Source of the DNA: Candidatus Moraniibacteriota bacterium
GTDB lineage: Bacteria > Patescibacteriota > Minisyncoccia > Moranbacterales > UBA1568
Direction of reading: 5' to 3'
NCBI GenBank assembly: GCA_016699875.1
Contig: CP064989.1
Location: 712,788 to 776,787, forward strand
DNA length: 64,000 nucleotides
The position numbers and the translations under genes were made by a program. The notes under the pieces were generated by a model. That model had not been told where the DNA came from, made no database searches, and saw only the letters and a list, made by a program, of their open reading frames with translations. This document shows positions 24,509 through 46,022 of this stretch, piece by piece (positions within the stretch are counted from its first letter, which is position 1; every line of letters begins with the position of its first letter).

Positions 24509-27500
24509 ATGAGGAGGAAAGTATTTTTGAGTTCAATGGGAGTTTTAATGAGTTTCTTCTTGGTGCAGGAAGCAACTGCATCGCCTTCGATTTCTTCTGT
24601 TTCTGGCACATGGAATCACAAGTCCACGATCACAGTGAGTGGTTTAGGATTTGGTACGAAGGCTACCGTGGCGCCGATAGTGTGGGATGATGCATCGGGG
24701 AGTAACATTTTGAATAACTGGAGTGGCGCATGGCCGACGTCAGCGGCGGGGTCGTCGCAAATGAATTATTATTTACCAATGCGCGGAGTCGCTCTACCTC
24801 ACAACAACATTACAAAATATATAGCAGGTTGTATAAGCGGTGGTGGTGCTGATACTGGCAATAATGCAGATTTATTTAAAACAATTTCAAATGTACAATT
24901 CCCGTCTTATATGTATGTTTCTTGGTATCATAGAGCTGATCCGGCATGGGTATTTACAGGAAGTGAACACAACTACAAATTGTTTGATTGGTCTATTGGA
25001 ACCGAGCCGATGGGTAGTGACAACTGGTATTTCGAATATAATCCGCCGCCTTTAAACAATACACCTACCGGTTCGGATCCATTCAATGATCCGAACTATC
25101 ATACCAATAACAATGGTGGTATGGGAATGTTCAGTACATGGGGTGATTATGCCTATAAACCAATGAATGGATGGGTCAAACTCGAACTTGAGATAAGATT
25201 CGACAGAACAGCATCAGGATATGTAAAAGCTTGGGAAAATGGGAAACAAGTTTTTAATAATAGTGGCGTAACAGATGCTACATCTGGATCGCAGAGAACG
25301 GTTACTGTGGGCGGATATACAATGCCGAGAAGTAGTAACCAATGGATGTATTTTGCTGACGTCTATATTGATACTGCCCGCCAGCGTATTGTCCTTGCTA
25401 ACAACCCCAATATCAACAACGCCACCATTAAAGAAGTCCAGATCCCGAGCGCATGGAACGATACGTCAATCAGCCTCTCTTCCAATCTTGGTAAGTTCAC
25501 GAGCGGTCAAACCGCATACCTCTTTGTCTATGACTCGACCGGCACACCAAATACAACTGGTTATCCGGTGACGATCGGCGGCGGAGGTGGTGGTGACACC
25601 ACTCCTCCCACTTCTCCCACCAACCTTGTCGCAAATGCCACCAGCCAATCAAGCATTACCGTCTCTTGGACTGCTGCTACTGACAACATCGGAGTAGCAG
25701 GCTACCAAGTGGAACATTGTTCTCCTTCTGGTTGCTCCACATTTACCCAAGTAGGAACTCCAACATCTTCTCCTTTTATTGATTCAGGATTAACAGCAAA
25801 TGCCTTCTACAACTACCACGTCCGTGCCGTCGATGCTGCCGGCAATACTTCAGGCTGGAGCAATGTTGTGGGAGCAACTACTCAAGCCGCTTCACAAACG
25901 CCCACCATCTCCCTCTCTGCAAACCCGACGAGTATCACCTCCGGACAATCCAGTACTCTTACTTGGAGTTCCACTAACGCCACTAGCTGTACGGCTTCCG
26001 GAAGTTGGTCTGGTACCAAAGCCACAAGCGGCACCCAGTCTGTTTCTCCCGCCACAACGAGTACCTACACCCTCACCTGTACCGGTACGGGAGGAGCGAC
26101 CAATCAGAGCGCGACGGTAACGGTGGGGAGTGGAGGAAGTAATGTTTCTATGAATGAGTGCTCAACAATGCAAAATGGTTGGATTTTCTGCAATGACTTC
26201 GATACCAATGTCACCACTGATACGCAACGAAGAGCACAGTGGGATGATTATGACGGCGCGACCGACGTCAACTTCCCACAGGACAATGGACCATCGCAGA
26301 ATTCCAGCAACCATGTTGCCCAATTCCTCATTCCACAGAATGCGTCTGCCGGTGCCGATCTTGTCAAAGTTTTTGGCAGTTCCTATCAGAAACTCTATCT
26401 GCGCTACTACACCAAATACGCTACTGGTTTTCCATTTACCATGGGGAATCATGGAGGAGGCTTAACCGCAGGTGATCGAGCACATCTCGCTACCTCTGGC
26501 TATCGACCTGGTGATCCAGCAACGCCAAGTGGTTCCGACGAATGGGCGGACTTTCGAGTGCAGTACAATAAGGGATCGAATCCGATTCCCTACGCTTACT
26601 CATACAATGTTGGCATGTATCAAGACTGTCCAAGCTCTGGAAGCTGCTTTGGAGATTCTTACCCGTGCGTCTATGACAGCGGCCAATCCTACTGTACAAA
26701 AGCTGTTGATCGACCAACAGCCACTATGCCGACTATTACAGCTGGTAACTGGCATTGTGTCGAGGAAACGGTTGATATGGGAACAGCGGGACAGTCAAAT
26801 GGAACATTTCAGCTTACATGGGATGGCGCCTATGCAGGCAATCTGGTCAATATGCATTTCCGAAACAATGCAAACAATTTGTTACACAATCTCTACTTAT
26901 CGCTCTACAGTGGTGATGCGACGCATGCTCTAGCTGATCAGCGACTCGACAATATCGTTGTCTCCACACAGCCCATTGGGTGTGGGAACACCTCCACCCC
27001 CGACACCACCCCTCCCACCAGTCCAACCAACCTCGCTGCCAATGCCACCAGTGAGTCCAGCATCACCGTCTCTTGGGACCCAGCAACCGACAACATTGGA
27101 GTCACTGGCTACCAAGTCGAACGCTGTCTTGGTCTCTCATGCTCCAACTTTACTCAAGTCGGAACTACCACAAGCTCTCCCCTTACAGACTCCAACCTGA
27201 CCGCTTCTACCGGCTACTCCTACCATGTAAGAGCTGTCGATGCCGCAGGGAACACCAGTGACTGGTCTAATGTCGTCGGTACAACGACTCAAGGTACACC
27301 CACCCCCACCTCCTGCTCCACCGTCACCCCCACCAACTTCACCACCTCAACCTACACCGGCTACGGTGCTCCCTATGACGTCTTTGTGAGTAACACTCCT
27401 CTTATCTCCACCACCTGTACCAGCAGCGATACCCACACGATAAACGCTACCCTCGGTATTACCGGAGACACTACCCGTATCGTCTACACCAAAGGCTACT

Positions 27501-27748
27501 ACTATGATCCCGGTATATCTGACTGGACCTCCTTCACCGGAACCTGTACCGGAGCCTTGAATGGAGACTGGTGCCAAGGAAGTGTCTCTGCCACTCTCAC
27601 CGATACCGATATCTCTACAGCAAGCGCTTCCGATCCCGCCTACCTGGTCGGTATGACCTGTAGCATACAGGGAGGTACGTGGAAGTGCGGATGCAGAGAC
27701 ACAACGTGTTCTACGTTCTACTGGCAGGTGCAGGGGGCGGGACTCTGA
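24509..27748 (+). CDS. Large secreted protein (1079 aa) built from two units, each a beta-jelly-roll domain (polysaccharide-lyase/glucanase-like, assignment uncertain) plus an FN3 domain, and a Cys/Thr-rich C-terminus
   Basis: Signal peptide. FN3 repeats TPPTSPTNLVANATSQSSITVSWTAATDNIGVAGYQVEHC...YHVRAVDAAGNTSGWSNV and TPPTSPTNLAANATSESSITVSWDPATDNIGVTGYQVERC...YHVRAVDAAGNTSDWSNV. Confidence 0.75.
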   Translation: MRRKVFLSSMGVLMSFFLVQEATASPSISSVSGTWNHKSTITVSGLGFGTKATVAPIVWDDASGSNILNNWSGAWPTSAAGSSQMNYYLPMRGVALPHNNITKYIAGCISGGGADTGNNADLFKTISNVQFPSYMYVSWYHRADPAWVFTGSEHNYKLFDWSIGTEPMGSDNWYFEYNPPPLNNTPTGSDPFNDPNYHTNNNGGMGMFSTWGDYAYKPMNGWVKLELEIRFDRTASGYVKAWENGKQVFNNSGVTDATSGSQRTVTVGGYTMPRSSNQWMYFADVYIDTARQRIVLANNPNINNATIKEVQIPSAWNDTSISLSSNLGKFTSGQTAYLFVYDSTGTPNTTGYPVTIGGGGGGDTTPPTSPTNLVANATSQSSITVSWTAATDNIGVAGYQVEHCSPSGCSTFTQVGTPTSSPFIDSGLTANAFYNYHVRAVDAAGNTSGWSNVVGATTQAASQTPTISLSANPTSITSGQSSTLTWSSTNATSCTASGSWSGTKATSGTQSVSPATTSTYTLTCTGTGGATNQSATVTVGSGGSNVSMNECSTMQNGWIFCNDFDTNVTTDTQRRAQWDDYDGATDVNFPQDNGPSQNSSNHVAQFLIPQNASAGADLVKVFGSSYQKLYLRYYTKYATGFPFTMGNHGGGLTAGDRAHLATSGYRPGDPATPSGSDEWADFRVQYNKGSNPIPYAYSYNVGMYQDCPSSGSCFGDSYPCVYDSGQSYCTKAVDRPTATMPTITAGNWHCVEETVDMGTAGQSNGTFQLTWDGAYAGNLVNMHFRNNANNLLHNLYLSLYSGDATHALADQRLDNIVVSTQPIGCGNTSTPDTTPPTSPTNLAANATSESSITVSWDPATDNIGVTGYQVERCLGLSCSNFTQVGTTTSSPLTDSNLTASTGYSYHVRAVDAAGNTSDWSNVVGTTTQGTPTPTSCSTVTPTNFTTSTYTGYGAPYDVFVSNTPLISTTCTSSDTHTINATLGITGDTTRIVYTKGYYYDPGISDWTSFTGTCTGALNGDWCQGSVSATLTDTDISTASASDPAYLVGMTCSIQGGTWKCGCRDTTCSTFYWQVQGAGL

Positions 27749-27920
27749 AATCGGAGAGGGAAAAGGGAAATGCGACAACACAGAGGCGAGAGTCTCTTGT
27801 GGTGTTGTTTTGGGCGGGGTTAGGTGCTTTTTCTGTTGCCTTGTCTTTCTCTGCTGACCTATTTCTTTGGTTAAAGATATCCATGGTACAATAAAGACAT
27901 ATATTTTTTGTGATGCGCCT

Positions 27921-29084
27921 ATGCCGCAGCCACACGGACTCGGGAGGGGGTTGTCTTCGCTTATTCCGCAAAATCAGAAGAAGTCGGAAGTATCAACTGG
28001 GGACAGTCCCCAGCCTGTTTCATCGGCAGCTACCGCTCAAAAGGCGAGTCCATTTGGTGTGAAGATGGCGCCGCTTCAGAAGCTGCCGCCTGTGCCTTCT
28101 GAAACAAGAGAGAAAAGTGTGAAATCGGCTGATCAAACTATCGCATCGGGCGCCTCCTCGGGTGTATCACAAAAACAGCAGGGTCTGTCCTCTCCAGTGT
28201 TTGATATTCCGGCGGTGCAGGTGGAAAATCCGAGCAGTCCTACGGAAATGTCATCAAGTTCTGTTGAAAATCCGCCGGTATCGACGGGAGAGGGGGTGGC
28301 ACTGTCAGTGCCTATTGGGAACGTGATACCAAATCCGCATCAGCCACGCATACAATTCAGCGAAGAAAAGCTCATGGAGCTCGCGCAATCAATCAAAGAG
28401 CATGGCATTCTCCAGCCGCTCATTGTGACGCGCTCAGGGGGTAATTTTGAGCTTATAGCGGGGGAACGCCGATTGCAGGCGGCGCGAATTGTCGGTCTTT
28501 CGGAAGTGCCGGTTATTGTGCGCGAGGCGGAGAATCAGGAAAAATTTGAGCTGGCTATTATTGAGAACATTCAGAGACACGATCTCAATCCGATCGAGGA
28601 AGCAAGAGCGTATGATCGGCTCTCGAAAGAATTTCAATTGTCGCAAGAATCCATAGCGAAGAAAATGGGGAGAAGCCGGAGTGCTATTGCCAATACGATG
28701 CGGCTTTTGCAGCTGCCGGTCGATATACAGCGCGCCGTTGCTGATGATAAGATTTCCGAAGGGCACGCAAAGGCATTGCTTGCTATCGATAATGCTGAGA
28801 AGCAGCGCGCGCTTTTTGAGATGATCGTGCAGCAGAGTCTCACTGTGCGTGAAGCGGAAGCAAAGTCTCGAGGTGTTTCGACTCGACCTCCGAAGAGAGT
28901 ATCGAAGGATCCGGAAATCGAAGGTCGGGAGAATACTTTGTCAGAAATATTTGGCACAAAAGTTCGCATCGCCAAGACAGCTTCCGGCGGAACAATTCGC
29001 ATCGAGTATTTCTCCGATGAAGAGTTTAAAAATATCTTCTCGAAACTTTCCGGAAAACATGAAGACGGAACCGGCAGTATGTGA
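27921..29084 (+). CDS. parB: ParB/Spo0J-family chromosome partitioning protein with an inserted ~120-aa low-complexity segment after the N-terminal GLGRGL motif; no adjacent parA
   Basis: MPQPHGLGRGLSSLIP ... IPNPHQPRIQFSEEKLMELAQSIKEHGILQPLIVT...ELIAGERRLQAARIVGL...VIVRE (ParB box and HTH) ... EGHAKALLAI. Confidence 0.9.
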   Translation: MPQPHGLGRGLSSLIPQNQKKSEVSTGDSPQPVSSAATAQKASPFGVKMAPLQKLPPVPSETREKSVKSADQTIASGASSGVSQKQQGLSSPVFDIPAVQVENPSSPTEMSSSSVENPPVSTGEGVALSVPIGNVIPNPHQPRIQFSEEKLMELAQSIKEHGILQPLIVTRSGGNFELIAGERRLQAARIVGLSEVPVIVREAENQEKFELAIIENIQRHDLNPIEEARAYDRLSKEFQLSQESIAKKMGRSRSAIANTMRLLQLPVDIQRAVADDKISEGHAKALLAIDNAEKQRALFEMIVQQSLTVREAEAKSRGVSTRPPKRVSKDPEIEGRENTLSEIFGTKVRIAKTASGGTIRIEYFSDEEFKNIFSKLSGKHEDGTGSM

Positions 29085-29140
29085 TCGCCTTTTTTGACGC
29101 TGCTTTCTGCTTTTGAGCGTCGCAGTCTCTCTTGGTCTGC

Positions 29141-30265
29141 TCAAAGGTAATTATCGCCTTTTTCTTGCCGTATCTTTTCCAAGAGTGTCTTCATTTCGGA
29201 AACCTTGTCTTTGCTGGCGACTAAAATACAGTCGTCTGTTTCGACGACAACGACGTTTTCGAGTCCGATTGTGGCAATGAGCTTTTTGTCTGAGAGAATG
29301 AGGCATTTCTCACTTCCCACATCGATATGATTTCCGCGTGCGATGATGGAGACTTCATGCCGCTTCTCGAGAAGATCAAAGAGCGCAGACCAGTTGCCGA
29401 CATCGCTCCATTCGAGTGGTGCCGGTATGACAGCTCGTTTTTCCGGGGGGAGTTTTTCAATAATGGCGGGTTCTATCGGATCATTCGGCAGTTCTTCAAA
29501 AAGCTTCTGTGTTTCTTGGGGATTATCTCTGGTGTTTCTCATGCGTTCGAGTGTCTGTGAGAGTTCCGGGGTGAAGACTCTTATTTGGGCCAAAAAAGCG
29601 CGTGCTGAGAAAATGAAATACCCGGCATTCCAGAGGTATTCCCAGTTTTTCAGATACTCCTCAGCGGTTTCTCGATCGGGCTTCTCTTTGAAGGAGTCGA
29701 TTGAAAAGACTCGGTGGTCGTGAACAACGCCGAGATCCTCACCCATTTTTATGTATCCAAAACCAGTGTCCGGAGCCGTGGGATTGATGCCTATAGTGAC
29801 TATTTTGTCATTGAATTTTGACGCAGTTTCGAATGCGGAAAGAAGTGCCGGAGAGAATGCATCGCCATTGGTGATAACGTGATCGGAAGCGATGGTGGCG
29901 ACGATGGCGTCGGGATCGCGATCAAATATTTCCTGTGCTGCCAGAGCGATAGCGGCGGCGGTACCGCGGGGAGCTGGCTCGATAATGAGATGATCGGCTT
30001 CGATTTCCGGGAGAAGATCGAGAACTTTCCGGCGATATCGGTCGCTCGTACCCACGAATATATTGCCGGTACCGGCGAGTGTCTTCCGAAGCCGTTCCCA
30101 GGTGTCTTCCAGGAGGGTCGATCCGCTTTCCGACAAGAAATTATGGAATTGTTTCGGTTTGGATTTTCTAGAGAGCGGCCAGAGTCGAGTGCCGCTCCCG
30201 CCCGCCATGATGACAGCGTAGAAGTGTGGATACTGAATAGGCTGTTCGCAAGTGTCTTCCGGCAT
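29141..30265 (-). CDS. Mannose-1-phosphate guanylyltransferase (GDP-mannose pyrophosphorylase)-like nucleotidyltransferase
   Basis: N-terminal AVIMAGGSGTRLWPLSRKSKPKQF (G-x-G-T-R-L nucleotide-binding motif), then a left-handed beta-helix-less NTP-transferase core. 374 aa. Confidence 0.8.
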   Translation of the reverse strand: MPEDTCEQPIQYPHFYAVIMAGGSGTRLWPLSRKSKPKQFHNFLSESGSTLLEDTWERLRKTLAGTGNIFVGTSDRYRRKVLDLLPEIEADHLIIEPAPRGTAAAIALAAQEIFDRDPDAIVATIASDHVITNGDAFSPALLSAFETASKFNDKIVTIGINPTAPDTGFGYIKMGEDLGVVHDHRVFSIDSFKEKPDRETAEEYLKNWEYLWNAGYFIFSARAFLAQIRVFTPELSQTLERMRNTRDNPQETQKLFEELPNDPIEPAIIEKLPPEKRAVIPAPLEWSDVGNWSALFDLLEKRHEVSIIARGNHIDVGSEKCLILSDKKLIATIGLENVVVVETDDCILVASKDKVSEMKTLLEKIRQEKGDNYL

Positions 30266-30412
30266 AGGACTTTTCGAAGTTATGTGCGATATGACAGGTT
30301 AAACGATGAGATAAAACAAACGGCGTATCCTCGAGAAGATCGTCTTCTTAAGGGGATTGAATTTCGTCCAAAGCTTTCCCTGATATTCGCACCATAGCGC
30401 GTTTTCTGTTTT

Positions 30413-31201
30413 TTGCAAGGGTTTTGCTATAATGCCAACATGATTGAGAAATTGAAATCTCCTTGGCGCCGGAGAGATGATCAATGGAACGATGATCGGG
30501 AGATCCCCTCGAAGATGTCGGGAAAGTTTCGTCGTGTTGTGAGGAGTGTTGCGATTCTTCTTGGGGTGGCGGTGATTGGCGGGTCAATAGCGGGCGGGGT
30601 CAACATGTGGCTTGCTCGTCGATCGGAACAATCGAAGCTACTGGCGGTTGAGAATGGAAAATCACAGGAGAGCGCTTTAAATGCCATAGAAGGTTCGCCG
30701 GTTGAATCGAATCCGGTGGCGGAAGTGCTGGGAGAGAATGATTTGGGAAGTATCGGCGTGCTTTCAAGTGAGAATTACCGTGTCGGGCAAATTGTACTTG
30801 GAGGCGATGTGGGATTGCTCTCGCAGGGTGATGAGCTGACTGAGCTTGGCATAAACGATATTCGCGGCGAAACATTGAGCAGTAAAAACCAAAATGAGGG
30901 TCGCGCGCTTATTACCTGGAGAACCAGTAAGGCAGCAAAGTCGACCCTGACTTATAGTAAAACGGCTGGCGGAAGCGAAAAGTCCATTGACGAGGATGGA
31001 TTCGGTATGTCACATAGCGCCGTTCTTTCCAACCTGGATCTTTCTTCGACGTATCTCTATACGGTGACGGTCCGTGATCGCTATGGAAATGAGGTGACGA
31101 GTGATCCGCATGCGGTATATACGGGGACTCGCGTCGTATCGCTTTTCGAGCTTATTACCAATGCGTTGCAAGAGGTCTTCGGGTGGGCAGTAAAGAAATA
31201 A
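30413..31201 (+). CDS. Hypothetical single-pass membrane protein with a C-terminal FN3/Ig-like beta domain
   Basis: TM AILLGVAVIGGSIAGGVNMWLA. C-terminal LITWRTSKAAKSTLTYSKTAGG...YLYTVTVRDRYGNEVTS is FN3-like. Confidence 0.5.
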   Translation: MQGFCYNANMIEKLKSPWRRRDDQWNDDREIPSKMSGKFRRVVRSVAILLGVAVIGGSIAGGVNMWLARRSEQSKLLAVENGKSQESALNAIEGSPVESNPVAEVLGENDLGSIGVLSSENYRVGQIVLGGDVGLLSQGDELTELGINDIRGETLSSKNQNEGRALITWRTSKAAKSTLTYSKTAGGSEKSIDEDGFGMSHSAVLSNLDLSSTYLYTVTVRDRYGNEVTSDPHAVYTGTRVVSLFELITNALQEVFGWAVKK

Positions 31202-31220
31202 CAAGTATCAAATTCTCTGT

Positions 31221-31238
31221 GGGAACCGCGCGGTTCCC
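31221..31238 (+). terminator. 18-bp perfect palindrome GGGAACCGCGCGGTTCCC after the preceding gene (terminator-like hairpin, weak T-tract)
   Basis: Read directly from the sequence. Followed by TTGGG. Confidence 0.35.
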
Positions 31239-31519
31239 TTGGGTCATTGAGTACGTGGATCATTCGAGGTGATTTTGACACGAAGAAGCTGAAGAATAGC
31301 AACGGATCATTTGGTTCGAACGCCGAGAACGGAATCTGTTTTGCGTAGTGGAGAAAGGATTTTATCTCTCTTGACAGAGCTCGGACGAGCTTTGTTTTTT
31401 TATCAATTTTGTAGTACTATTATGACTAAGCACATGGGTGCATTTTCTTAATTCAGATGCTCTCGACTGAAGTGGCGAGGAGAACACGCTTTTGTTCTCC
31501 CGAAGCACTTCGATCCTGA

Positions 31520-34500
31520 ATGCATTTCTTCAATCAAAACAAAAAGAGGAGCCTCTTCACTTTGATTCGTTCGGTGTTGCAGGCAGAAGAGCATTTCATT
31601 GTACTTCTTTCGGTAGGAATACTGGCGGGAGTTTGTCTCTGGGGAATGGCTTCTCAGTCTGTTTTTGCGCAGGCAATTCCCGGCACGGCACAGGTGCTGG
31701 GGAGTGAGAAGCAAATCAGTGCTTCGGCAATACTTCTGGATGGCAAAGGATCGCCAGTGCCAAATGGCGAGTATGAAGTGCGGTTTAGTATCTACCGTGC
31801 CGACCGGACAACGAGCGATCCGTATCCATCTGACACGGATGCCCCGCTTCGTGTGTGGGAGGAAACGCAAACAGCGACCGTGAAGAATGGCATCATGAAT
31901 GCCTATCTCGGTGTCACGACGCCTTTCCCTGGAAATCTTACTTTCGAAGGCGGGGAATACTTTCTTGGGGTTCGCGTGGGAACGGATTCGGAAATGATTC
32001 CGCGGAAGAAGTTCGGCACTTTCACCAATGCGATTAATTCGCAGTTTTTGCGTGGTCGGACATTTGGCACAAATGCGGGAGATATTGCGACCTATGGCAC
32101 CAATGGGAAATTTGATATCAAGCAGCTTCCGACGGGAACGAGCGGGAATAAGTTGCTTCTTGCAAACAATAAGGATTTTACGGGAGTGCTCGATGATGTA
32201 TCGGGTCTCTTGGATGATGTCTCAACGCTTCAGAACGACAGTCATGCGCAGAATACCGATACGGGGACAGACTCCCTGACATTCAATGTAGGATCCGATA
32301 CGGCAGTCGGCTCATCAAACTTTGGTTTTACTGTTTCGAGCGCTGGCACGAAACCGGAGCTCCGATATAACAGCTCTTTGAGTCAGTGGGAATTCTCCGA
32401 TGACGGTTCGGTCTTTACGGCACTCAATGCTGGTTCTGGAGGTGGCGTGAATGGATCGGGCACGAGCGGACAGATTGCCTACTGGACAGGGACAAGCACG
32501 CTTGGATCGGAAGCACATCTCTCAGCTTCGCGTGGTGGAACGGGTATCGACACATCAAGCTCGACGGGTGTGCCAGTTGTTTCGTCCGGCACATGGAGCA
32601 TTGCCTCGGCACTTGGCGTGTCGCAGGGCGGCACAGGACTTTCCTCAACACCAGCGAATGGGGAATTGCTTATCGGGAATGGATCCGGGTTTGCACTTGC
32701 GACGCTTTCGACTGGAAGTGGTCTTGCGCTTTCGAATGGGGCAGGATCAATTAACTTGGCACTTGACGTGACGACGACAGGCACAACTGCTACAACGCAG
32801 TCGAATTCTGGACTTGAGCTGGTTGCATCGGGACTTCGGCTTCTTGGCGGATGCTCCGATGGGGAAATACTTAAATGGGACAGTGGAAGCTCGGTGTGGG
32901 CATGTTCGAGTGATCTTGGTGGTGCAACGGCGATTATCAATGTGAATGAAGGGTCGACAGCCTATACTGGCATTGATACGCTTACATTTGACGCGGATGA
33001 CTTCAGTATTTCCCAACTCGGAAGCGAAGCAACAGTGACGATTGATTATGCAAATTCCGGTATCGCTCGGCTTGGTCAGGATGAAACCGTGACGGGGGCT
33101 TGGGACTTTTCCGGAAATACTACTTTTGGCACGATTGTTGGTGGTGTCTGGAATGGTACAGCGATCGGTGCGACCTATGGTGGCACTGGCATTAATACCT
33201 CCGGCTCAACTGGCGTACCGTATATAACGGGTGGCACATGGAGCGTTGATGCGACGGCGCTCTCGGTTGCACATGGAGGAACGGGTGCGACGAGTCTTGC
33301 AAACTTGATTGCCCTCACCACCGACACCACCGGCAACTACGTCCAATCCATTACCAATGGCAACGGTATCACTGGTGGAAACGGAGGATCTGAAGGAGCA
33401 ACTCTCACCCTCTCCCTCAACCTCCTCACCTCCGCAGACGGCACCGGCTCCACCTCCTCCAACTCCGGCCTCGAATTCCAAGGCACCAGCTCCAATGAAC
33501 TCTCTCTCCTCCAAGGATGTGCTAACAACGAAGTCCTTTCTTGGAACGACTCTACAAATGTCTGGCAATGTGCCAGCGTCTCCGGAGTAGGCGGTGTTAC
33601 CGGAAGCGCCACCAGCGGACAGGTTGCCTATTGGACCGGAACCTCAACGCTCTCCGGAGAAGATCAGGTAACTGTTGCCCAAGGGGGAACGGGAATCGGA
33701 AGCTATACCACCGGAGACATTCTCTATGCGTCAGGAGCCACAACTCTTGCCAAACTTGCTGATGTTGCAACCGGAAATGTTCTTATCTCCGGAGGGGTGG
33801 GAGTGCAACCGCAGTGGGGGAAGGTGGCGCTCGGAAGTGCTGTGAGTGGGACTCTTCCGGTAGCGAATGGAGGAACGGGGGCGACTACGCTCACGGCCAA
33901 CGGAGTCATTTATGGAAACGGTACTGGCGCCATTCAAGCGACTTCTGCCGGAACCGACGCTCAAATACTCATAGCCAATGCTTCCGGTGTGCCTACGTTC
34001 GTTACTCTGGGCGGCGACGCTACGGTCAACAATTCCGGATCTCTCACCATTGCTGCCAACAGTGTTGCCCTCACCACCGACACCACCGGCAACTACGTCC
34101 AATCCATTACCAATGGCAACGGTATCACTGGTGGAAACGGAGGATCTGAAGGAGCAACTCTCACCCTCTCCCTCAACCTCCTCACCTCCGCAGACGGCAC
34201 CGGCTCCACCTCCTCCAACTCCGGCCTCGAATTCCAAGGCACCAGCTCCAATGAACTCTCTCTCCTCCAAGGATGTGCTAACAACGAAGTCCTTTCTTGG
34301 AACGACTCTACAAATGTCTGGCAATGTGCCAGCGTCTCCGGAGTAGGCGGTGTTACCGGAAGCGCCACCAGCGGACAGGTTGCCTATTGGACCGGAACCT
34401 CAACGCTCTCCGGAGAAGATCAGGTAACTGTTGCCCAAGGGGGAACGGGAATCGGAAGCTACACCACCGGAGACATTCTCTATGCGTCAGGAGCCACGAC

Positions 34501-37500
34501 TCTCGCTAAACTTGCTGATGTCGCAACCGGAAATGTTCTTATCTCCGGAGGGGTGGGAGTGCAACCGCAGTGGGGGAAGGTGGCTTTGGGCACATATACC
34601 TCAGGGAATTACGTGGCGAATGCGAGTACGTCGACACTTACAGGGTTGACTGGCGGGTCCGGCGGATCGGTGGGCGCGTCGCTCTCGCTCGCTTTTGACT
34701 ACACGACTCCGCTTACGGGTGACCCGGCGCTTTCGGCAAACAATGCTATCTTTGGAACCAACGGACTCATCTTCGAAGGGGCGACCGCGAATACATTTGA
34801 GACCTATGTCACTTTGACTGACCCAACGGCAGATCGAACGCTGACGCTTCCCAATGTGACTGGAACGATTGCAACGCTGAATGGCGGTCAAATATTTACT
34901 TCCGCCACATGGAACGGCACGGCGATCGGCGCGACCTATGGCGGTACAGGCATCAATACGATTGGTTCAACCGGTGTGCCATATATAAATGGCGGGGCAT
35001 GGAGCGTCGACTCAGCGGCGCTTGCCGTGGCGCATGGTGGGACGGGACTTACGACTTTTGGCGGGACAAATACGCTTCTTTATACGACAACTGCTAATAC
35101 GCTCGCGTCTATTTCGGCTGCGGCAAATAGTATTCTGGTGACGAACGGGTCGAATGTTCCTTCGCTTTCGACCGATATCCCGACGGCGGTTACTATTGGT
35201 TCCGCCTATATCTACCGTGTGGGCGGTACTGATGTGTCGCTCGCCGACGGCGGCACCGGCTCCTCTCTCTCCGACCCCAATGCCGACCGCATCCTCTTCT
35301 GGGACGACTCCGCCGGAGCTGTCACCTGGCTTTCTCCTTCTTCCAACCTCTCTATTAGTACAACCACTCTTGATCTCGCCTCTTCCATAAACATCAATAC
35401 GCTCCAACTCGGCACCGACGGCACCGACGGTTCTTTCATCATCTACTCCGAACAAGGGGCAACTGACTATACCACTACCTTCCAACCGGGAGCACAGTCA
35501 CAAAACATTACCTATACGCTTCCGAATGATGATGGAACAAGCGGACAGGTGCTTATTACGGATGGGACGGGAGCACTCTCGTGGTCGAGTGTTTCCGGTG
35601 CGGGCGGTGTGACAGGGACAAGCACGAGCGGGTATGCAGTCTATTGGGATAGTACGAACTCGATTGCTGGCGAGCCATACCTCTCCTTAACTCGCGGTGG
35701 AACAGGAACAACGCTTTCCGATCCGGGAGCCGATCGCATTCTCTTCTGGGACGATTCGGTCGGTGCGATTGATTGGCTTTCTGCCGGATCAAATCTTTCT
35801 ATTAGTGGAACGACCATTAACCTCGCGTCGAGCATACAACTCGGATCGGACGGATCGGACGGAGTGCTTACCATTTATTCCGAGCAGGGTGCAACCGATT
35901 ATACCTCGACTTTCCAGCCGGGAACGCAGACGCAGAATATCACTTATACGCTGCCGGCGGATGATGGTGCTGCGAGTCAGGTACTCGTCACTGATGGGAC
36001 CGGGAACCTTTCGTGGCAATCGGTGTCTGGCGTTGGCGCGCTCGATGGATCAGGTTTAACTGATGCTGTTGCCTACTGGGTGGATAGCAACACGCTTACC
36101 TATGAAACAGCGCTCGCCCTTTCCCGTGGCGGCACCGGCTCCTCTCTCTCCGACCCCAATGCTGACCGCATCCTCTTCTGGGACGACTCTGCTGGAGCGG
36201 TCACTTGGCTTTCTCCTTCTTCCAACCTCTCTATTAGTACAACCACTCTTGACCTCGCTTCTTCTGTAAACGTCAATACTCTCCAACTCGGTACCGACGG
36301 CACCGACGGTTCTTTCATCATCTACTCCGAACAAGGGGCAACTGACTATACCACTACCTTCCAACCGGGAGCACAGTCACAGAACATCACCTATACGCTT
36401 CCGAATGATGATGGAACAAGCGGACAGGTGCTCATCACGGATGGATCAGGCATACTCTCCTGGACATCCGCTGGCTCTGGCGGTATCGGTGACATTACCG
36501 CGATCGGAGATGTAGCGAGTGGGGATGCCTTTACGGCAAGTGGTACCCAGGGAACCAGTCTCTACTTCTATGATGTGGATGGAAGGGGACAACTCACGAT
36601 TGCCAATCTCACGGCTGCTCGGATGTATACGCTTCCAGATGCCACTGGAACTATTATCACTACGGGCAATCTCACCGGTATTACCGCAACAGGCACGATT
36701 GCGAGTGGGACGTGGAATGGGACAGCGATCGGTGCAGCGTATGGCGGAACCGGACTTGATACATCCGGTGGTTCGACGACTGGAGTGCCTACTATTAGTA
36801 GTGGGGTGTGGAGTGTCTCGAGTTCGCTTGATGTGACGCTTGGTGGTACCGGCACGAGCGCACTTTCCTCCGGCGGTCTTCTCTATGGTAATGGCACTTC
36901 GGCAATCGGCGCTTTGAGCGTGATGACGAATGGCCAACTCCTTATCGGCGATGGCACGGGCGTGCCGACACTTGCGACGCTTTCGGAAGGGGATGGGGTT
37001 ACGGTGACAAATGGCGCCGGTTCCATCACCCTCTCCCTCAACCTCCTCACCTCCGCAGACGGTACCGGCTCCACCTCCTCCAACTCCGGCCTCGAATTCC
37101 AAGGCACCAGCTCCAATGAACTCTCTCTCCTCCAAGGATGTGCTAACAACGAAGTCCTTTCTTGGAACGACTCTACAAATGTCTGGCAATGTGCCAGCGT
37201 CTCCGGAGTAGGCGGTGTTACCGGAAGCGCCACCAGCGGACAGGTTGCCTATTGGACCGGAACCTCAACGCTCTCCGGAGAAGATCAGGTAACTGTTGCC
37301 CAAGGGGAACGGGAATCGGAAGCTATACCACCGGAGACATTCTCTATGCGTCAGGAGCCACAACTCTTGCCAAACTTGCTGATGTCGCAACCGGAAATGT
37401 TCTTATCTCCGGAGGGGTGGGAGTGGCACCGAGCTGGGGGAAGGTGGCATTGGGTACGCATACCTCGGGGAATTATGTTGCAAATGCGAGCACGTCGACC

Positions 37501-40500
37501 TTGACCGGTCTTACGGGCGGATCCGGCGGATCGGCGGGCGCGTCGCTCTCGCTCGCTTTTGACTACACGACTCCGCTTACGGGTGATCCGGCGCTTTCGG
37601 CAAATAATACAATCTTTGGAACAAACGGCCTTATATTTGAAGGGGCGACCGCGAATACATTTGAGACCTATGTCACTTTGACTGACCCAACGGCAGATCG
37701 AACACTGACACTTCCCAATGTGACCGGAACGATTGCAACGCTGAATGGCGGTCAAACATTTACTTCCGCCACATGGAACGGCACGGCGATCGGTGCGACC
37801 TATGGCGGTACAGGTATCAATACGATTGGTTCAACCGGTGTGCCATATATAAATGGCGGGGCGTGGAGCGTCGACTCAACAGCGCTTGCCGTGGCACATG
37901 GTGGCACGGGACTTACGACTTTTGGCGGGACAAATACGCTTCTTTATACGACAACTGCTAATACGCTCGCGTCTATTTCAGCTGCGGCAAATAGTATTCT
38001 GGTGACGAACGGGTCGAATGTTCCTTCGCTTGCAACTGATATCCCGACGGCGGTTACTATTGGTTCTGCCTATATCTACCGTGTGGGCGGTACTGATATA
38101 TCGCTCGCCGACGGCGGCACCGGCTCCTCTCTCTCCGACCCCAATGCTGACCGCATCCTTTTCTGGGACGACTCTGCCGGAGCGGTCACCTGGCTTTCTC
38201 CTTCTTCCAACCTCTCTATTAGTACAACCACTCTTGACCTCGCTTCTTCCGTAAACATCAATACTCTCCAACTCGGCACCGACGGCTCCGACGGCTCCTT
38301 CATCATCTACTCCGAACAAGGGGCAACTGACTATACCACTACCTTCCAACCGGGAGCACAGTCACAAAACATTACCTATACGCTTCCGAATGATGATGGA
38401 ACAAGCGGACAGGTGCTTATTACGGATGGGACGGGAGCACTCTCGTGGTCGAGTGTTTCCGGTGCGGGCGGTGTGACAGGGACAAGCACGAGCGGGTATG
38501 CAGTCTATTGGGATAGTACGAACTCGATTGCTGGCGAGCCATACCTCTCCTTAACTCGCGGTGGAACAGGAACAACGCTCTCCGACCCCAATGCTGACCG
38601 CATCCTTTTCTGGGACGACTCTGCCGGAGCGGTCACCTGGCTTTCTCCTTCTTCCAACCTCTCTATTAGTACAACCACTCTTGACCTCGCTTCTTCCGTA
38701 AACATCAATACTCTCCAACTCGGCACCGACGGCTCCGACGGCTCCTTCATCATCTACTCCGAACAAGGGGCAACTGACTATACCACTACCTTCCAACCGG
38801 GAGCACAGTCACAAAACATTACCTATACGCTTCCGAATGATGATGGAACAAGCGGACAGGTGCTTATTACGGATGGGACGGGAGCACTCTCGTGGTCGAG
38901 TGTTTCCGGTGCGGGCGGTGTGACAGGGACAAGCACGAGCGGGTATGCAGTCTATTGGGATAGTACGAACTCGATTGCTGGCGAGCCATACCTCTCCTTA
39001 ACTCGCGGTGGAACAGGAACAACGCTCTCCGACCCCAATGCTGACCGCATCCTTTTCTGGGACGACTCTGCCGGAGCGGTCACCTGGCTTTCTCCTTCTT
39101 CCAACTCTCTCTATTAGTACAACCACTCTTGACCTCGCTTCTTCCGTAAACATCAATACTCTCCAACTCGGCACCGACGGCTCCGACGGCTCCTTCATCA
39201 TCTACTCCGAACAAGGGGCAACTGACTATACCACTACCTTCCAACCGGGAGCACAGTCACAAAACATTACCTATACGCTTCCGAATGATGATGGAACAAG
39301 CGGACAGGTGCTTATTACGGATGGGACGGGCATACTCTCCTGGACATCCGCTGGCTCTGGCGGCATCGGTGACATTACCGCGATCGGAGATGTAGCGAGT
39401 GGGGATGCCTTTACGGCAAGTGGTACCCAGGGAACCAGTCTCTACTTCTATGATGCGGACGGCAGAGGACAACTCACGATTGCCAATCTTTCTGCGGCAC
39501 GGACGTATACGTTGCCGGATGTGAGTGGCACAATTGCAACACTGAATGGCGGACAGACCTTTACGAGTGCTACGTGGAACGGATCGACAGTCGGAGTGGC
39601 GTATGGCGGAACAGGCGTTACTACCTTTGGCGGGACGAATACGCTCCTCTATACGACTTCCGCCAATACACTGACATCACTCGCTACGGCAAACAGCTCG
39701 ATTCTTATTACGAATGGCTCCGGTGTTCCATCCATTGCAACCGATATCCCGACAGCAGTTACTATCGGCTCTTCCTATATCTATCGTGCGGGCGGGACTG
39801 ATGTGTCGGTTGCGGATGGTGGTACGGGCTTGAGTTCCTATACTGCTGGCGATCTTCTCTATGCTTCCAATACAACAACGCTCGCCGGGCTCGCCGATAT
39901 TGCCACCGGAAACGTGCTCCTCTCGGGTGGCGTTAGTTCGTCGCCATTGTGGGGAAAGGTAGTGCTTGGGACGCATACGACCGGGAACTATGTCGCATCG
40001 GCAACGGCGAGTGGGGGACTCACGATGACCGGGACGGCTGGAGGAAGTCTCGGCATTCTTCTTCAGCCTTCGACGGACGCGCTCTCCTCGACCACGAGCT
40101 CCGGATCAGGCATGGAACTTCTCTCGACTGGACTCTCACTTTTACAGGGTTGTTCAAATGAACAAGTGCTTTCTTGGAACGAAGCATCCGATGTGTGGGA
40201 ATGTTCGGACAAAACTGCTGGCACGAGCGACTGGACAGCAGTGATTGGGACGCCGAATTTCTCCTATCTCACTGATACGAGTGCACATTTGGTGGTAGGT
40301 GGATCGACGGAAGCGGCTGGTGCTTTTGATTTTGATGTGACTACCACAAAGCTCAATATTGGCGCGGCGGCAAGTTTTGACACATTCATTATTGCTCCGG
40401 TTACGAAGGGAACAACGTCCCATTCTGGGACATTGACTACTGCCGATCTTACAACAGCAAGTCGCACATGGACCCTCCCCGACGAAACTGGCACCATCTG

Positions 40501-43500
40501 TACCACTGGCAGCGTCTGCTCCGGCTACCAAGCTGCCGGCTCCTACCTCACCACTTCTACTTCCTTTGCCGGCGGAGACATTGCTTCCGGAACCTACAAT
40601 ACTCTCTCTCTTGCTTCCAGTATCACTCGCGATACCGAATGGGATACCGCTGCCGAGATCAATGCGGCTACAACAGACACCGACTTCGCTTACGCCGCCC
40701 TCTCCAACCTCGCCTCCGTCGCCATCAACACGAGCCTCATCTCCGATACGGACAATACCGATGATCTCGGTTCTGCTGCTATTGGCTGGAAAGATATTTA
40801 CTCCCGCACCCTCAAGCTTGATGGATCTACCTCTGGCACGATTACTCTCCAAGCAGCTGCTACTGCAGGTACCAATACTATCACCCTTCCGGCAAGCACG
40901 GGGACAGTAGCGCTTACGAGCGATCTTCACTCCGCTGTCACATTCGGAGTCTCATCTTACGACTATCTCACCCTTTCCGGACAAGAAATCACTCTTGGAC
41001 AAATTGATCTCACAACCGATGTGACAGGAACGCTGCCGGTGGGGAATGGGGGGACGGGCGTAGCGACCTTCGGCGGGACGAATACACTTCTCTATACTTC
41101 TTCTGCTAATACGCTTGCATCGATTGCGACTGCAAATTCTTCATTCTTGACCACGAACGGTTCTGGTGTGCCGAGCTTTGCCGCGCTTTCTGCAGACACA
41201 TTTACTCAGTATGCACTTCTTGCCGGAAGAAGCGGAGGGCAGACCATTATTGGCGGAACAGGTGCGGGCGATGACCTCACATTCCAGACAACCTCCAATG
41301 GTACCAAAGGCTCATATATCTTCTCCGAACTCGGAAGTGGACTGGTGCTTTCAACATCGGGAACGCTTTCAGTGGTTACAAATACGCTTCATACACAGAA
41401 TACGGACACAGGAACAGATGGCACGACATTCACGGTTGGGGATGGCACTACGGTATTTACGGTTGATACCAGCGCGACCAACGATACTATTATTATCGAG
41501 CAGGGAACATACGATTCTATACTCTCTTTCACTCAACCGGGTGCTGCTGACCAAACCTATACGTTCGCAACAGGAGGAACAGTTTGTACCACTGGCAGCG
41601 TCTGCTCCGGCTACCAAGCCGCCGGCTCCTACCTCACCACTTCTACTTCCTTTGCCGGCGGAGATATCGCTTCCGGAACCTACAATACTCTCTCTCTTGC
41701 TTCCAGTATCACTCGCGATACCGAATGGGATACCGCTGCCGAGATCAATGCGGCTACAACAGACACCGACTTCGCTTACGCCGCCCTCTCTAATCTCTCC
41801 TCCGTCGCCATCAACACGAGCCTTATCTCCGATACGGACAATACCGATGATCTCGGTTCTGCTGCTATTGGCTGGAAAGATATTTACTCCCGCACCCTCA
41901 AGCTTGATGGATCTACCTCTGGCACGATTACTCTCCAAGCAGCCGCTACTGCAGGTACCAACACCATCACCCTTCCGGCAAGTACAGGGACAGTAGCGCT
42001 CACCAGTGATCTTCACTCTGCGGTTACCCTCTCTGGATCCTACGACTACATCACCCTCTCTGGACAAGACATCGTCCGAGGACAAATCGACCTTACGACC
42101 GATGTGACAGGGACACTGCCGGTGGGGAATGGGGGGACGGGCGCGATTACATTTACCACGAATGGTATTCTCTATGGCAATGGTACGAGTGCTATTGCGG
42201 TAACAGCAGCTGGAACAGATACGCAAATACTTTCCAATTCATCGGGCACGCCGGGATGGATCAATCAGTCCTCTATTAGTGCGGGCACACTCGACGGTAT
42301 CGATTCGCTCTCATTCCTCCGATCCGACACGAGTGACTCTTTCACGAGCGGCACGCTTTCATTTTCCGACGGAACACTGCTCGATCTCTCATCAATTGCT
42401 CATGATGACTCGGCTCCACAAGGTTTGAAACTCCCACAGAACACAACGCTCACAAATATCGTTGGCGGTGGGGCAGGGTATATCGCGTATGATACGACGG
42501 CGAATACGGTAAAGATGTTTAATGGCACCTCTTGGCTGAGCATTGGTGGTGCTTCAACTACACTTCAAGATGCGTACAGTAATGATGTTGATGGATCTGA
42601 CGCAACGATTTCTCTCACAACCGCCGATGATTCACTTATCTTTACCAATCCATCTTCAAGCGGGACGGACTCCGCGTTTTTGCTCCAGCTTAATCAGGCT
42701 AATACGACCGCTGGTGTTGTTGCGCTTGACATTATTCAGTCATCAAACAATGCGAATGCTGTCAACATCACTGCCAACTCAATCGATACGGAGACAGGAC
42801 TCTCTGTTACGGCGAATGCGCTTACAACTGGAACGGGTTTAAGCGTTACACATACTACAAGTGTCATTGCTAATGGTGGATCGCTTTTGCGTCTTTCTTC
42901 AAGTTCGGTTGATACCAGTACGACAACGGGGACACTTCTCGATCTTTCTTCCACCGGATCAACTGCCGGAACGATTGCGCTTATTACCAACAACACGGCT
43001 TCATTCACAGGAATTACTCAAAGCATCGTAGCGAACGGTATTTCGTCGGGTACCGGTCTTGCTATTGCCTCTTCCTCTGCCGCTATGACCGGTTCTCTCC
43101 AGTCCATCACGCTTTCCGGAAGCAATGCTTCAAACACAGGCAATCTTCTCTATCTCAATAGTTCCGGTGCGAACAGTGTTGCGAAAGCTTTGAACGTTGC
43201 TATTGCCTCGACCGGGAACTTCTCGACAACCGGAGGTGTGAACTTTACCTTTAGTGGAGCACACACGGGGACAGGATTTGCCGTAAGCGATGCAACGGCA
43301 ACCGGGACAGCAGTCTCTATCACGGCAAACAGTATCTCGACCGGCACGGGTGTGAGTATTGCTTCGACGTCGACCGCTGGCGGTGCGAGTGGATCTTCCT
43401 ATCTCCTCAATCTCTCCCGAAGCGGTGCGAATTCCAATTCGAGCCATACAGCATACGGCATATATTCCTCAGTGACGAATACCGGTACCTCGGCAGTCAA

Positions 43501-45298
43501 TTACGCGGGATATTTCAGTTCGACCACTTCCGGAACAACCTCAACAGCTGTTGGTGGCTACTTCAGTGCTAGTGGTGGAACGACAGCAAATTACGGACTC
43601 CTTGTTGCGGCAGGAAGTGTTGGTATTGGTACGACAGCGCCGGTCTCCGGTCTCGAGCTCTATTCTTCCGCCGCAAGCGACGACATTTTTACACTGACAT
43701 CCGCTACAGCCACGAATGATCCACTCCTCAAATTCCGTACTGGTACAACACCAGCTGTTCAATTCTCGCTCGGTGTCGACACGAGTGATTCCAATACGTT
43801 CAAGATTGACTCCAATGATGGACTTTCTACCTCGCCAGACTTCAAGATCGACTCGACCGGACAAACTACGATTGCGAATGCCGTCTTGGGTGCACAGAGT
43901 TTTCCGGAGGATGCGGGTATCGTGAGCTGGGTGGATATGAGCGTGACCAGCTCTTCGGCTGATAATACGGTTGAGAGCTATTCGGCGCAGATTGATAGTA
44001 ATCCGATTCTCACAATTTATGCGCTTTCTGATGGAGCAGGGAGTATCGATAACAAAGGTGTCGGCATTGGTACGACAGCGCCGTCTTATATGCTTGATGT
44101 GTATGACGATACGGCATCAGACTATGCGGCACGGTTCTTTAATGATGGAAACAATGCAAATCGATATGGCATTGTGATTCAGGCGGGAGCTGATGATGCA
44201 AGTGGTACCACTTATTATTTAAATGCTCTTGATGGTGATGGCGGGCAAGTTGGATATATTGCCAATACATCTGGAACTTTCGCACTTACTGATGTTTCTG
44301 ATGTTCGAACAAAGACAAATATAGAGAGTACCACTTTTGAAGGGCTTGATATAATTAATGCTCTTCGAGTTGTTGATTTTAATCGTTTGAGCAATCCTGA
44401 TGGACCAGAAATTACAGGATTTATTGCGCAAGAGGTATTATCGGTATATCCGAAAGCAGTAACTATCAGTTCGAGCGGATACTTTGGTATTGCAAAGAGC
44501 GAATTTATTCCAGTTATTGTAAAAGCACTCCAAGAAGAAGACTCTCGTGTTAATAGTATTGAAACAAAGGTGGACACCCTATTTCAAGGGAATGCGAGCA
44601 AATTGACGAGTCTTGTGCTTGAAACAAATAGTCAAGCAACAACACTTTCTGGACTGAAAATATCAGTAGATGAGCAGTTCGCGCTTGCGGCAGCACAGCT
44701 CAATGCGATGAGTGCGCGCCTCTCAACACTCGAGACGGCGAGCACTGACTACGAAGCGCGCCTCGCAGCAAATGAGACGGCGATTACCGGATTTGAATCG
44801 CGTCTCGCGACACTTGAAGAAACAAATGATGCGCTTCTCGATTTCTACAATGCATTCGAGCTTGGGAATGTGCTTGCCAAGGATACGGAAGGCAATCTGG
44901 ATCTTTTGAACGGACGGCTCCGCGCAAAGACAGTACGGACCGGTGCACTCGAAATCGAGATTGTAGACAGTGCCAATCCCACCATTGGCACGCTCGAAAT
45001 TCTACCAGTCGCCAAAGACGAAGACGGCGACGGAATCGATGATTGGTCGAAGCTCGCTCTGGACGATCCGGAAGTGGTAGCGCGCGATGGAAAGACGGCA
45101 AAGGTGTTGACGGGCGCAGTTACAAATCTTTCTCGCGTCTTCGTGAACTTTGTAGATAATCCCGGCTCCACTTCATGGCGCGAGCGTTCTCGCGGTGGGG
45201 ATGGGGAATATGACGGCTTCCTGATTCATCTGGCTGAGCCGGTTTCGGCGCCGGTCCGGGCGGACTGGTTCCTGGTGGAGGAGCGTGATGTTGAATAA
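31520..45298 (+). CDS. Giant (~4590 codons if repaired) phage tail-fibre-like repetitive surface protein. It appears as three ORFs (31520..37504, 37162..39117, 39008..45298) because of two frameshifts inside repeat copies. Either a pseudogene, phase-variable, or an assembly artefact.
   Basis: N-terminal signal anchor (FIVLLSVGILAGVCLWGMASQSVFAQA). Many GGTG-containing ~159-aa repeats (LSRGGTGSSLSDPNADRILFWDDSAGAVTWLSPSSNLSISTTTLDLASS...). Near-identical DNA repeats throughout. A C-terminal intramolecular-chaperone (S74-like) domain. Protein sequence on each side of both frame breaks continues the same repeat unit. Confidence 0.8.
33309..34590 (+). repeat. Two near-identical direct copies (~520 bp each, period 756 bp) of repeat family A inside the giant gene
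   Basis: 33309-33830 versus 34065-34590 (ccctcaccaccgacaccaccggcaactacgtccaatcc ... ggggtgggagtgcaaccgcagtgggggaaggtggc). They are almost identical at the DNA level. Confidence 0.85.
37027..38580 (+). repeat. ~1.55-kb segmental duplicate of 34065..35710 (repeat families A+C+B in the same order), carrying the G5-to-G4 frameshift
   Basis: 37027-37445 matches 34175-34590; 37445-38105 matches 34590-35255; 38105-38580 matches 35255-35710. All are near-identical DNA. Confidence 0.8.
38105..39300 (+). repeat. Tandem array of ~2.5 near-identical copies of the 477-bp (159-aa) B repeat
   Basis: The unit starting ctctccgaccccaatgctgaccgcatcc recurs at 38105, 38582 and 39059. Further copies lie at 35255 and 36125. 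The second frameshift lies in the third tandem copy. Confidence 0.85.
40499..42145 (+). repeat. Two copies of repeat family D (~390 bp near-identical, ~560 bp homologous; period 1086 bp)
   Basis: 40499-40890 versus 41585-41975 (tgtaccactggcagcgtctgctccggctaccaagc ... ccggcaag). Divergent but homologous to ~41060 and ~42145. Confidence 0.8.
44290..44580 (+). other. Intramolecular chaperone auto-processing domain (peptidase S74 / chaperone of endosialidase-like) near the C-terminus of the giant protein
   Basis: DVSDVRTKTNIESTTFEGLDIINALRVVDFNRLSNPDGPEITGFIAQEVLSVYPKAVTISSSGYFGIAKSEFIPVIVKALQEE. It matches the S-D-x-R-x-K ... GFIAQEV ... P-x-AV ... GY ... L-IP-L-EA-K pattern of phage tail-fibre/tailspike C-terminal chaperone domains. 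A further ~240-aa coiled-coil-rich tail follows. Confidence 0.7.
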
Positions 45299-45383
45299 GT
45301 GATTGATTGATAGAGGAAACCTTATTCCGTAAAACGGCACTTCACAGTATGCGATCAAGAAAAAGACAAAATCGGTTTGTACA

Positions 45384-45938
45384 ATGGTTCTTCATTGCTC
45401 TCTTCCTCATCCTTGGCGTTGGGGGTATTTTTGGTACCAGTCGAAAGCGGGTATTACTACAAATGTGAACGATAGCTACAACGAAACTGTAACCAGCGGC
45501 CTTGCCGGACAGTGGACATTCGATGCGGCTGATATGGATTGGAGCACAGCGAATGAAGTGGTTGATAGAACAGCCAATAGCAATGATGGAGATGTCGGCT
45601 CCGCAATCGATACGAGCAACATGACAGGTGGAAAGATAGGGCAGGCGATGAAGTTCAATGGAGTCGACGAATACGTCTCTATTGCCGACAATGCAACACT
45701 CGATGTCGATGCTTCGAGCGATATCACGCTCTCAGGCTGGTTCAATCGGGTGCCATCTTGGGGGACATCGTATGATTCTCCGGCATCAAACGTGTTTTCT
45801 CTCGCCACTGATTCCACCAACCACTCTACCAATAATGTCATTTATGCCAGTAGCGGGAGTGCGGGCATCATCTACCGTTGCGATATCGCCGCCACCAACT
45901 GCGACGCCGGTAGCGATTGGACCGAATGGGATGGATAA
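45384..45938 (+). CDS. Small LamG-like (jelly-roll lectin) domain protein. A TM anchor is encoded in a different frame just upstream (ATG 45349); probable frameshift at a G5/T5 tract.
   Basis: LAGQWTFDAADMDWSTANEVVDRTANSNDGDVGSAI...GQAMKFNGVDEYVSIADNATLDV...ITLSGWFNRV is a LamG signature. Frame +1 from ATG 45349 encodes MRSRKRQNRFVQWFFIALFLILGVGGIFG..., which stops at 45464-45466. Confidence 0.6.
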   Translation: MVLHCSLPHPWRWGYFWYQSKAGITTNVNDSYNETVTSGLAGQWTFDAADMDWSTANEVVDRTANSNDGDVGSAIDTSNMTGGKIGQAMKFNGVDEYVSIADNATLDVDASSDITLSGWFNRVPSWGTSYDSPASNVFSLATDSTNHSTNNVIYASSGSAGIIYRCDIAATNCDAGSDWTEWDG

Positions 45939-46022
45939 AATGTGAAATGGGGGCGTTTCTGTGGCTTGTGTCTGTTCTCTTTGAGAAGACACGTGTCAGC
46001 CTGTTTCTCAATGGTAGTCTTA

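Follow-up and report, generated by a model that had tools for sequence, protein, structure and literature searches.

The 64,000-nucleotide (nt) stretch analysed here, which we call the window, belongs to a Candidatus Moraniibacteriota bacterium (contig CP064989.1) and carries one giant gene for a predicted surface fibre, deposited as three adjacent and overlapping open reading frames (ORFs). CP064989 is a circular Moranbacterales metagenome-assembled genome (MAG) of f__UBA1568, named Fred_18-Q3-R57-64_MAXAC.421_sub_cln, with a length of 1,088,644 bp (Singleton 2021, PMC8012365, Supplementary Data 3), and its source was wastewater (Fredericia sample, PRJNA629478). In three further circular UBA1568 MAGs of the same study (CP064974, CP064975, and CP064994), the fibre gene lies in a syntenic position. 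The conserved locus, at 27867-47200 of the window, consists of parB, a nucleotidyltransferase gene on the opposite strand, a small gene of ~260 amino acids (aa), the fibre gene, and the atp operon, and the genes flanking the fibre gene (parB, the nucleotidyltransferase gene, and the atp operon) are cellular genes. The fibre itself varies in length, from 1,416 aa in CP064994 through 4,592 aa in the window to more than 5,400 aa in CP064974 and in CP064975. Its repeats are much more alike within than between genomes, which indicates concerted evolution.

The three ORFs of the window are pieces of one giant gene split by two frameshifts, the first being a missing G in one repeat copy and the second an extra T about 1.8 kb downstream. 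Both edits are required to obtain the ORF of 4,592 codons, as restoring the five-G run (G5) alone leaves the frameshift caused by the T. The features of the gene, including the GenBank entries that correspond to its first two sections, are listed in Table 1.

Table 1. Features of the fibre gene, numbered from the first nucleotide of the window
Feature	Position	Strand	Description
Whole giant gene, reconstructed	31520-45298	+	G restored at 37304-37307 and T at 39106 removed; 13,779 nt, 4,592 codons, one terminal stop
ORF1, 1,994 aa	31520-37504	+	GenBank IPK84_03665 (1,980 aa), 100% identical; last 66 codons out of frame
N-terminal signal or anchor sequence	31520-31675	+	MHFFNQNKKRSLFTLIRSVLQAEEHFIVLLSVGILAGVCLWGMASQSVFAQA; translation read by eye; hydrophobic core, ends AQA
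Repeat copy 1, intact G5	33680-33693	+	CAAGGGGGAACGGG; codons CAA GGG GGA ACG GG = Q G G T G
Repeat copy 2, intact G5	34436-34449	+	CAAGGGGGAACGGG
ORF2, 651 aa from first TTG	37162-39117	+	GenBank IPK84_03670 (555 aa, from 37450), 100% identical; middle section
Frameshift 1, repeat copy 3 with G4 (-1)	37301-37313 (G run 37304-37307)	+	CAAGGGGAACGGG
ORF3, 2,096 aa	39008-45298	+	C-terminal section of the same protein
Frameshift 2, extra T at 39106	39099-39115	+	TTCCAAC-T-CTCTCTATT
Peptidase_S74 domain (PF13884)	44297-44464	+	44.4 bits, cut-off 22; ORF3 residues 1764-1819; profile 1-58 of 58

The reconstructed protein resembles a phage tail fibre in several respects. Modules built around GGTG motifs make up about 3.5 kb-equivalents of the product, and matches to PHROG tail-fibre families, including a long tail fibre, lie at both of its ends. 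Peptidase_S74 domains start with an SDxRxK-type motif that holds a Ser/Lys catalytic pair, and the corresponding SDVRTK motif is intact at reconstructed residues 4260-4265. The predicted S74 domain would be of the kind that acts as an intramolecular chaperone and folds trimeric phage tail fibres. Its closest counterparts are phage tail fibres and endosialidase tailspikes (PF13884) together with the giant beta-strand-repeat surface proteins annotated in Patescibacteria, to which it is linked by the S74 domain, the SDxRxK-type motif, the PHROG matches, and long repetitive modules rich in Gly, Thr, and Ser. Unlike a phage tail fibre, the window gene is chromosomal, sits in the conserved parB-atp locus, starts with a signal sequence, is 4,592 aa long, and extends about 280 residues beyond the S74 domain to the C-terminus; it is known here from sequence. 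The N-terminal region is conserved in the CP064974 orthologue, and homologues of 1,400-3,400 aa are found in Moranbacteria and other Patescibacteria. A PDB sequence search with the last 596 residues of the fibre gave no match, and an NCBIfam search of the fibre gave nothing useful. A literature search on giant Moranbacteria surface proteins found nothing relevant, and a search by accession and locus tag returned unrelated papers only. Homologues of the N-terminal domain also occur on contigs binned as "uncultured Bdellovibrionales" (four loci: L004, L011, L018, and L019), which could be misbinned Patescibacteria or could reflect horizontal transfer. With regard to base composition, the GC skew is +0.1 to +0.2 over almost the whole window, whatever the gene orientation, with dips at 22-28 kb and also over the fibre gene (34000-44000), where it is negative (-0.01 to -0.13) and the GC content rises up to 0.53-0.55.

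The first frameshift is located 42% into the fibre gene. A sequence-only reading of the window had reported that one G is missing from the third copy of a repeat, and this is real: the 14-mer CAAGGGGGAACGGG occurs exactly twice in the window, against 0.05 occurrences expected by chance, and the third copy reads CAAGGGGAACGGG. The ranges named for the copies in that reading enclose the true positions. When the three copies are aligned, the only gap falls at the missing G, and the preceding 203 aligned columns are identical throughout. Exact identity around the four-G (G4) site extends for 240 nt leftward, whereas rightward it reaches 78 nt against copy 1 and 18 nt against copy 2, with only two bases distinguishing copy 3: a T at 37326, which is C in copy 2, and a C at 37386, which is T in copy 1. 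Across the site, one nucleotide is lost from the repeat spacing (2865 to 2864 nt). Past it, ORF 31520-37504 continues in unrelated sequence (GERESEAIPPETFSMRQ... and ...EDQVTVAQGERESEAIPPETF...) up to the stop at 37504, and the frame of ORF 37162-39117 carries GTGIGSYTTGDILYASGATTLAKLADVATGN, the in-frame sequence of copies 1 and 2. The proposal that the loss of a G moves the reading frame of one giant gene from the first ORF to the second is correct.

Calling this site "frameshift 1" was apt, since a second frameshift follows. The extra T at 39106 moves translation from ORF 37162-39117 to ORF 39008-45298, and a TAG stop is found within 5 codons after it. The T lies in one copy of a 447-nt repeat, of which four other copies read TTCCAACCTCTCTATT at this place. 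Compared with the preceding copy, the copy with the T is otherwise identical over 528 nt to the left and 224 nt to the right (752 nt in all). The T adjoins a (CT)3 stretch, so that the site is of low complexity, and the change is not one of homopolymer length. The window holds no second copy of the TCCAACTCTCTCTAT variant, which would have been a possible source of mis-mapped reads at 39106.

Frame changes at two defined points might in principle be decoded on purpose, with a -1 shift at the G run and a +1 shift at 39106, or the three ORFs might be separate genes. A -1 slip on GGG-G would indeed yield the canonical QGGTGIG, and the TAG stop close behind the second site is a feature that programmed frameshifting would share. 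However, positions 37301-37310 contain no X XXY YYZ heptamer, the shift sites and their motifs differ between species, and CP064974 has no counterpart of frameshift 1. As for separate genes, neither junction has a promoter-like site nearby, a signal peptide is absent from both ORF2 and ORF3, and both ORFs begin with ordinary repeat sequence that is in frame in the other copies. Both versions of this explanation appear extremely improbable.

The orthologues in the sister genomes are interrupted as well. In CP064974, a C3 run is extended to C4 (locus position about 16283) in the last copy of the 447-nt repeat, which splits the protein into pieces of 2,147 aa and at least 3,334 aa; the frame downstream runs through 3,402 codons without a stop before the locus ends. 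This shift lies 24 nt from the counterpart of the extra T in the window and involves a different motif. The CP064975 orthologue is called as four genes, with lesions at locus positions 12331, 12396, 18841, and 19599. Here, a C4-to-C5 and an A2-to-A3 change are only 65 nt apart, as judged against a 98.7%-identical paralogous copy, and an identical C3-to-C2 deletion is present in two repeat copies, with the third copy intact. Correcting the four bases leaves at least 4,134 open codons. In total, all seven lesions of the fibre gene across the three MAGs are single-base changes, and none is a nonsense codon. In CP064994, the fibre gene of 1,416 aa is intact, and the frameshift is found in atpH, a single-copy gene for the ATP synthase delta subunit, in a T6 run (CGATTTCTTTTTTGCTTCGG) at locus position about 20150-20165, where the sequence is called as a 623-aa delta-alpha fusion ORF. 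Two of the lesions in the sister MAGs have a CCCTCG context in common across genomes, which might point to a systematic, possibly methylation-related, base-calling error.

The sequence-only reading offered three explanations for the G tract without ranking them and named slipped-strand phase variation first. According to this explanation, the tract would be a contingency switch between G5 and G4 that turns a host-attachment fibre on and off. Like the phase-variable surface and adhesin genes with poly-G/C tracts in Neisseria, Haemophilus, and Campylobacter, the fibre gene of the window encodes a surface protein and has a reading frame that depends on the length of an internal G homopolymer, and the recurrence of frameshifts in the same gene of three related species also speaks for this explanation. 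Known contingency-locus G/C tracts are considerably longer than G5, however, and the window tract differs from them in being 4-5 bases long, one of many, unconserved, in the middle of the gene, and accompanied by a second, unrelated frameshift. The tract does not stand out from its background, the window having 34 G5 and 5 G6 runs and the gene itself 8 G5 and 2 G6 runs. It corresponds to GGG-GGA for the Gly-Gly of a GGTG motif, and the 25 GGTG motifs in the protein use 18 codon combinations; the matching motifs of CP064975 are encoded by GGT GGG ACC and GGA GGG ACG. The position 42% into the gene likewise counts against a switch. A change of the tract alone would also be insufficient, as the T at the non-homopolymer site 1.8 kb downstream must go too, and the sister genomes carry their lesions at C2-C5 and A2-A3 runs. 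Phase variation at this tract thus fits the evidence poorly, and we regard it as very unlikely. A broader version would be that the frameshifts are real and reversible and that Moranbacterales episymbionts switch the giant fibre by slippage at ordinary short runs, provided that their mismatch repair is weak. Mismatch repair is often weak in reduced genomes, which would raise slippage at short tracts. If true, reversible switching would account for the interruption of this one gene in three sister species, but the chance that it is true seems to us similarly slight.

The way in which the genomes were assembled suggests a different origin. CANU assembled the Nanopore reads of the study, and the assemblies were polished by Racon with the Nanopore reads, by medaka 0.6.5 in two rounds, and finally by Racon with Illumina reads in a single round (PMC8012365). 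As described for Polypolish (PMC8812927), residual long-read errors are mostly errors of homopolymer length and are often left in repeats by alignment-based short-read polishing. Most of the benefit of polishing is reached by 25x, and at low depth many polishers add errors. The depth of CP064974 is 20.1x for Illumina and 41.3x for Nanopore, that of CP064989 is 12.8x and 33.2x, that of CP064975 is 9.8x and 18.4x, and that of CP064994, with the intact fibre gene, is 5.4x and 10.9x. Among the three genomes with lesions, the lesion density of the fibre gene is inversely related to the Illumina depth: one lesion per 16.4 kb in CP064974, two per 13.8 kb in the window, and four per 12.4 kb in CP064975. 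The MAG with the lowest depth, CP064994, has its frameshift in atpH. An inverse relation of this kind is predicted by an artefact and not by biology.

The lesions of the window also lie where short reads lack a unique placement. Positions whose centred 151-mer is exactly duplicated make up 13.8% of the corrected gene, and both sites are among them (0.138 squared, ~0.02). In the rest of the window (~50 kb), the Pfam-bearing genes match their profiles essentially end to end, the exceptions being one nonsense codon and one insertion sequence (IS) transposase. About 16,000 codons are visible in the homologues from short-read MAGs, and none of these homologues has a frameshift there, but their contigs mostly break at repeats. 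When genome contigs were scanned with the N-terminal domain, 16 of the 18 loci found ended inside the fibre gene, and short-read assemblies therefore do not sample the fibre repeats. A metagenome scan for the frameshift-1 site, with G4 or G5 allowed, gave 0 matches and thus yielded no independent assembly of this species. A protein search with the reconstructed segment that spans frameshift 1 gave no matches other than the annotated ORF2 (100%) and a fragment (84%) beginning directly behind the motif, so that no independent sequence in this search crosses the site.

We consider it quite probable that the G4 tract is an uncorrected base-calling or consensus error of the Nanopore metagenome assembly rather than a property of the organism. 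During the long-read consensus, a one-base length error would arise in one repeat copy. Illumina reads with G5 that derive from copy 3 would then align perfectly to copy 1 or 2, and a read reaching one of the distinguishing single-nucleotide polymorphisms would incur one mismatch at the sister copy, which is cheaper than a one-base gap at copy 3. The erroneous copy would thereby be starved of correcting reads, and the error would persist. The same reasoning could account for the extra T at 39106, which is surrounded by 752 nt that the neighbouring copy shares exactly. In this respect, the window resembles the residual homopolymer errors that survive polishing in R9-era Nanopore data, as treated in PMC8812927: a long-read assembly was polished with short reads, single-base changes lie in short runs, the sites are not uniquely mappable and are commoner at low depth, and single-base edits restore the ORF. 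The window differs from such cases in that it comes from a metagenome bin at about 13x Illumina depth and not from an isolate, and in that the T beside the CT repeat is not a pure homopolymer change. The restriction to single-base lesions, together with the two that are 65 nt apart, favours poor local consensus over mutation. Thus, the consensus or assembly error, as one of the three explanations of the sequence-only reading, is the one we favour on indirect evidence; its wording of a collapsed repeat appears less apt, the likely mechanism being an unpolished long-read error in a repeat that is not uniquely mappable.

Several observations weigh against an assembly error. The extra T at 39106 is not an error of homopolymer length. 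Each error is carried by only one of several identical copies, and a purely context-driven error would hit all of them, so that the explanation needs stochastic correction at low depth. The CP064975 lesion at 19599 lies in a diverged copy, where short reads should map uniquely, and CP064974 has nine perfect (100%-identical) tandem copies of 660 nt without a lesion. The depth trend rests on three genomes. Finally, recurrent lesions in one surface gene across three species also fit recurrent biological inactivation.

Such inactivation would mean that the frameshift is real and recent, with the dominant population carrying the G4 and T alleles and the fibre being cut to 1,994 residues without its C-terminal chaperone, as a young pseudogene. 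Genes for surface fibres are often dispensable and subject to diversifying pressure, and the loss of the fibre might then have been selected for as an escape from recognition by phages or predators. The lesion is present in the deposited sequence, the orthologues are interrupted in two sister species too, the MAG has some strain heterogeneity (polymorphic rate 0.0019), and another gene of the window is disrupted, the DUF4349 gene having a TAA where all its relatives have Ser, so that some genes may really be decaying. On the other hand, all lesions are single-base indels in short runs, without nonsense codons or larger deletions in the 4,592 and at least 4,134 corrected codons. Since the lesion-bearing copies and the copies next to them are identical over hundreds of bases, any real mutation would have to be very recent, younger in each case than the last repeat homogenisation and independent in the three species. 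The two CP064975 insertions 65 nt apart are unlikely as independent mutations, there is no biological reason for lesion density to track sequencing depth, and both lesions of the window lie in exactly duplicated sequence. We therefore judge a real, recent frameshift to be unlikely. An old fixed pseudogene, as considered in the sequence-only reading, is unlikely: two single-base corrections leave 4,592 codons open, and the S74 domain and the SDVRTK motif are intact. With an assembly error as the preferred explanation, the gene in the cell is probably intact and would encode a secreted fibre of about 4,592 residues.

The DUF4349 gene (53812-54918, plus strand) has an in-frame TAA at 54343-54345 (GGT ATT TAA AAA CAG). 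The Pfam profile is matched at positions 2-40 before the stop and 42-212 after it, and all orthologues have Ser at this place. A short-read Logan contig (SRR14234116), which is 95.8% identical over 2,124 nt without gaps, reads TCA here. At this codon, the window has either a true nonsense mutation or a consensus error that turned C into A between runs of T and A. A transposase of the IS4/IS5 family (59013-60269, plus strand) is encoded in two overlapping frames, with DUF4096 at 59013-59486 and DDE_Tnp_1 at 59411-59821, which looks like the layout that is usual for transposases of this IS family (IS5-type). Directly after the IS, there is a fragment of an orotidine monophosphate (OMP) decarboxylase, which covers only profile positions 108-207 and is below the threshold (23.6 bits, cut-off 27); the IS may have interrupted pyrF. 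A supposed frameshift in atpH of the window was rejected, as the sequence between atpH and atpA is a separate small gene for a HAD-like hydrolase (48145-48557, plus strand), which is absent at the same position in CP064994.

The leucyl-tRNA synthetase (55428-58544, plus strand; 1,038 aa) contains a NUDIX domain at residues 460-576 (47.9 bits against 21.1), placed between the editing domain and the remaining catalytic core, which is an unusual insertion. Further large envelope or surface genes are located at 1741-6195 (minus strand), 11547-16139 (minus strand), and 22953-27748 (plus strand), and all appear intact. The large envelope genes include an AcrB-type pump with its HlyD partner, a 1,530-aa protein without clear domains, a Laminin_G_3 protein, and a 1,079-aa protein with polysaccharide lyase and fn3 domains. 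A 346-kb contig from a related member of the Moraniibacteriota (GCA_037975565.1 / GCA_037201605.1) has nearly all of its syntenic genes shattered, with BacA reduced to 47 aa, ParA to 143 aa, and the fibre to at least five pieces. This looks like an unpolished long-read assembly that is unfit for inferring gene content.

If the frameshifts are artefacts, what is probably one secreted fibre of 4,592 residues in the organism appears in GenBank as three hypothetical proteins (IPK84_03665, IPK84_03670, and a third), and the orthologues of CP064974 and CP064975 are fragmented likewise in the public records. Any survey that draws on these Nanopore-era MAGs to study giant proteins, pseudogene load, or phase variation in the Patescibacteria would then arrive at wrong counts. 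If the frameshifts are real, they would be evidence that an uncultured symbiont has recently lost or switched a structure with a probable role in host attachment.

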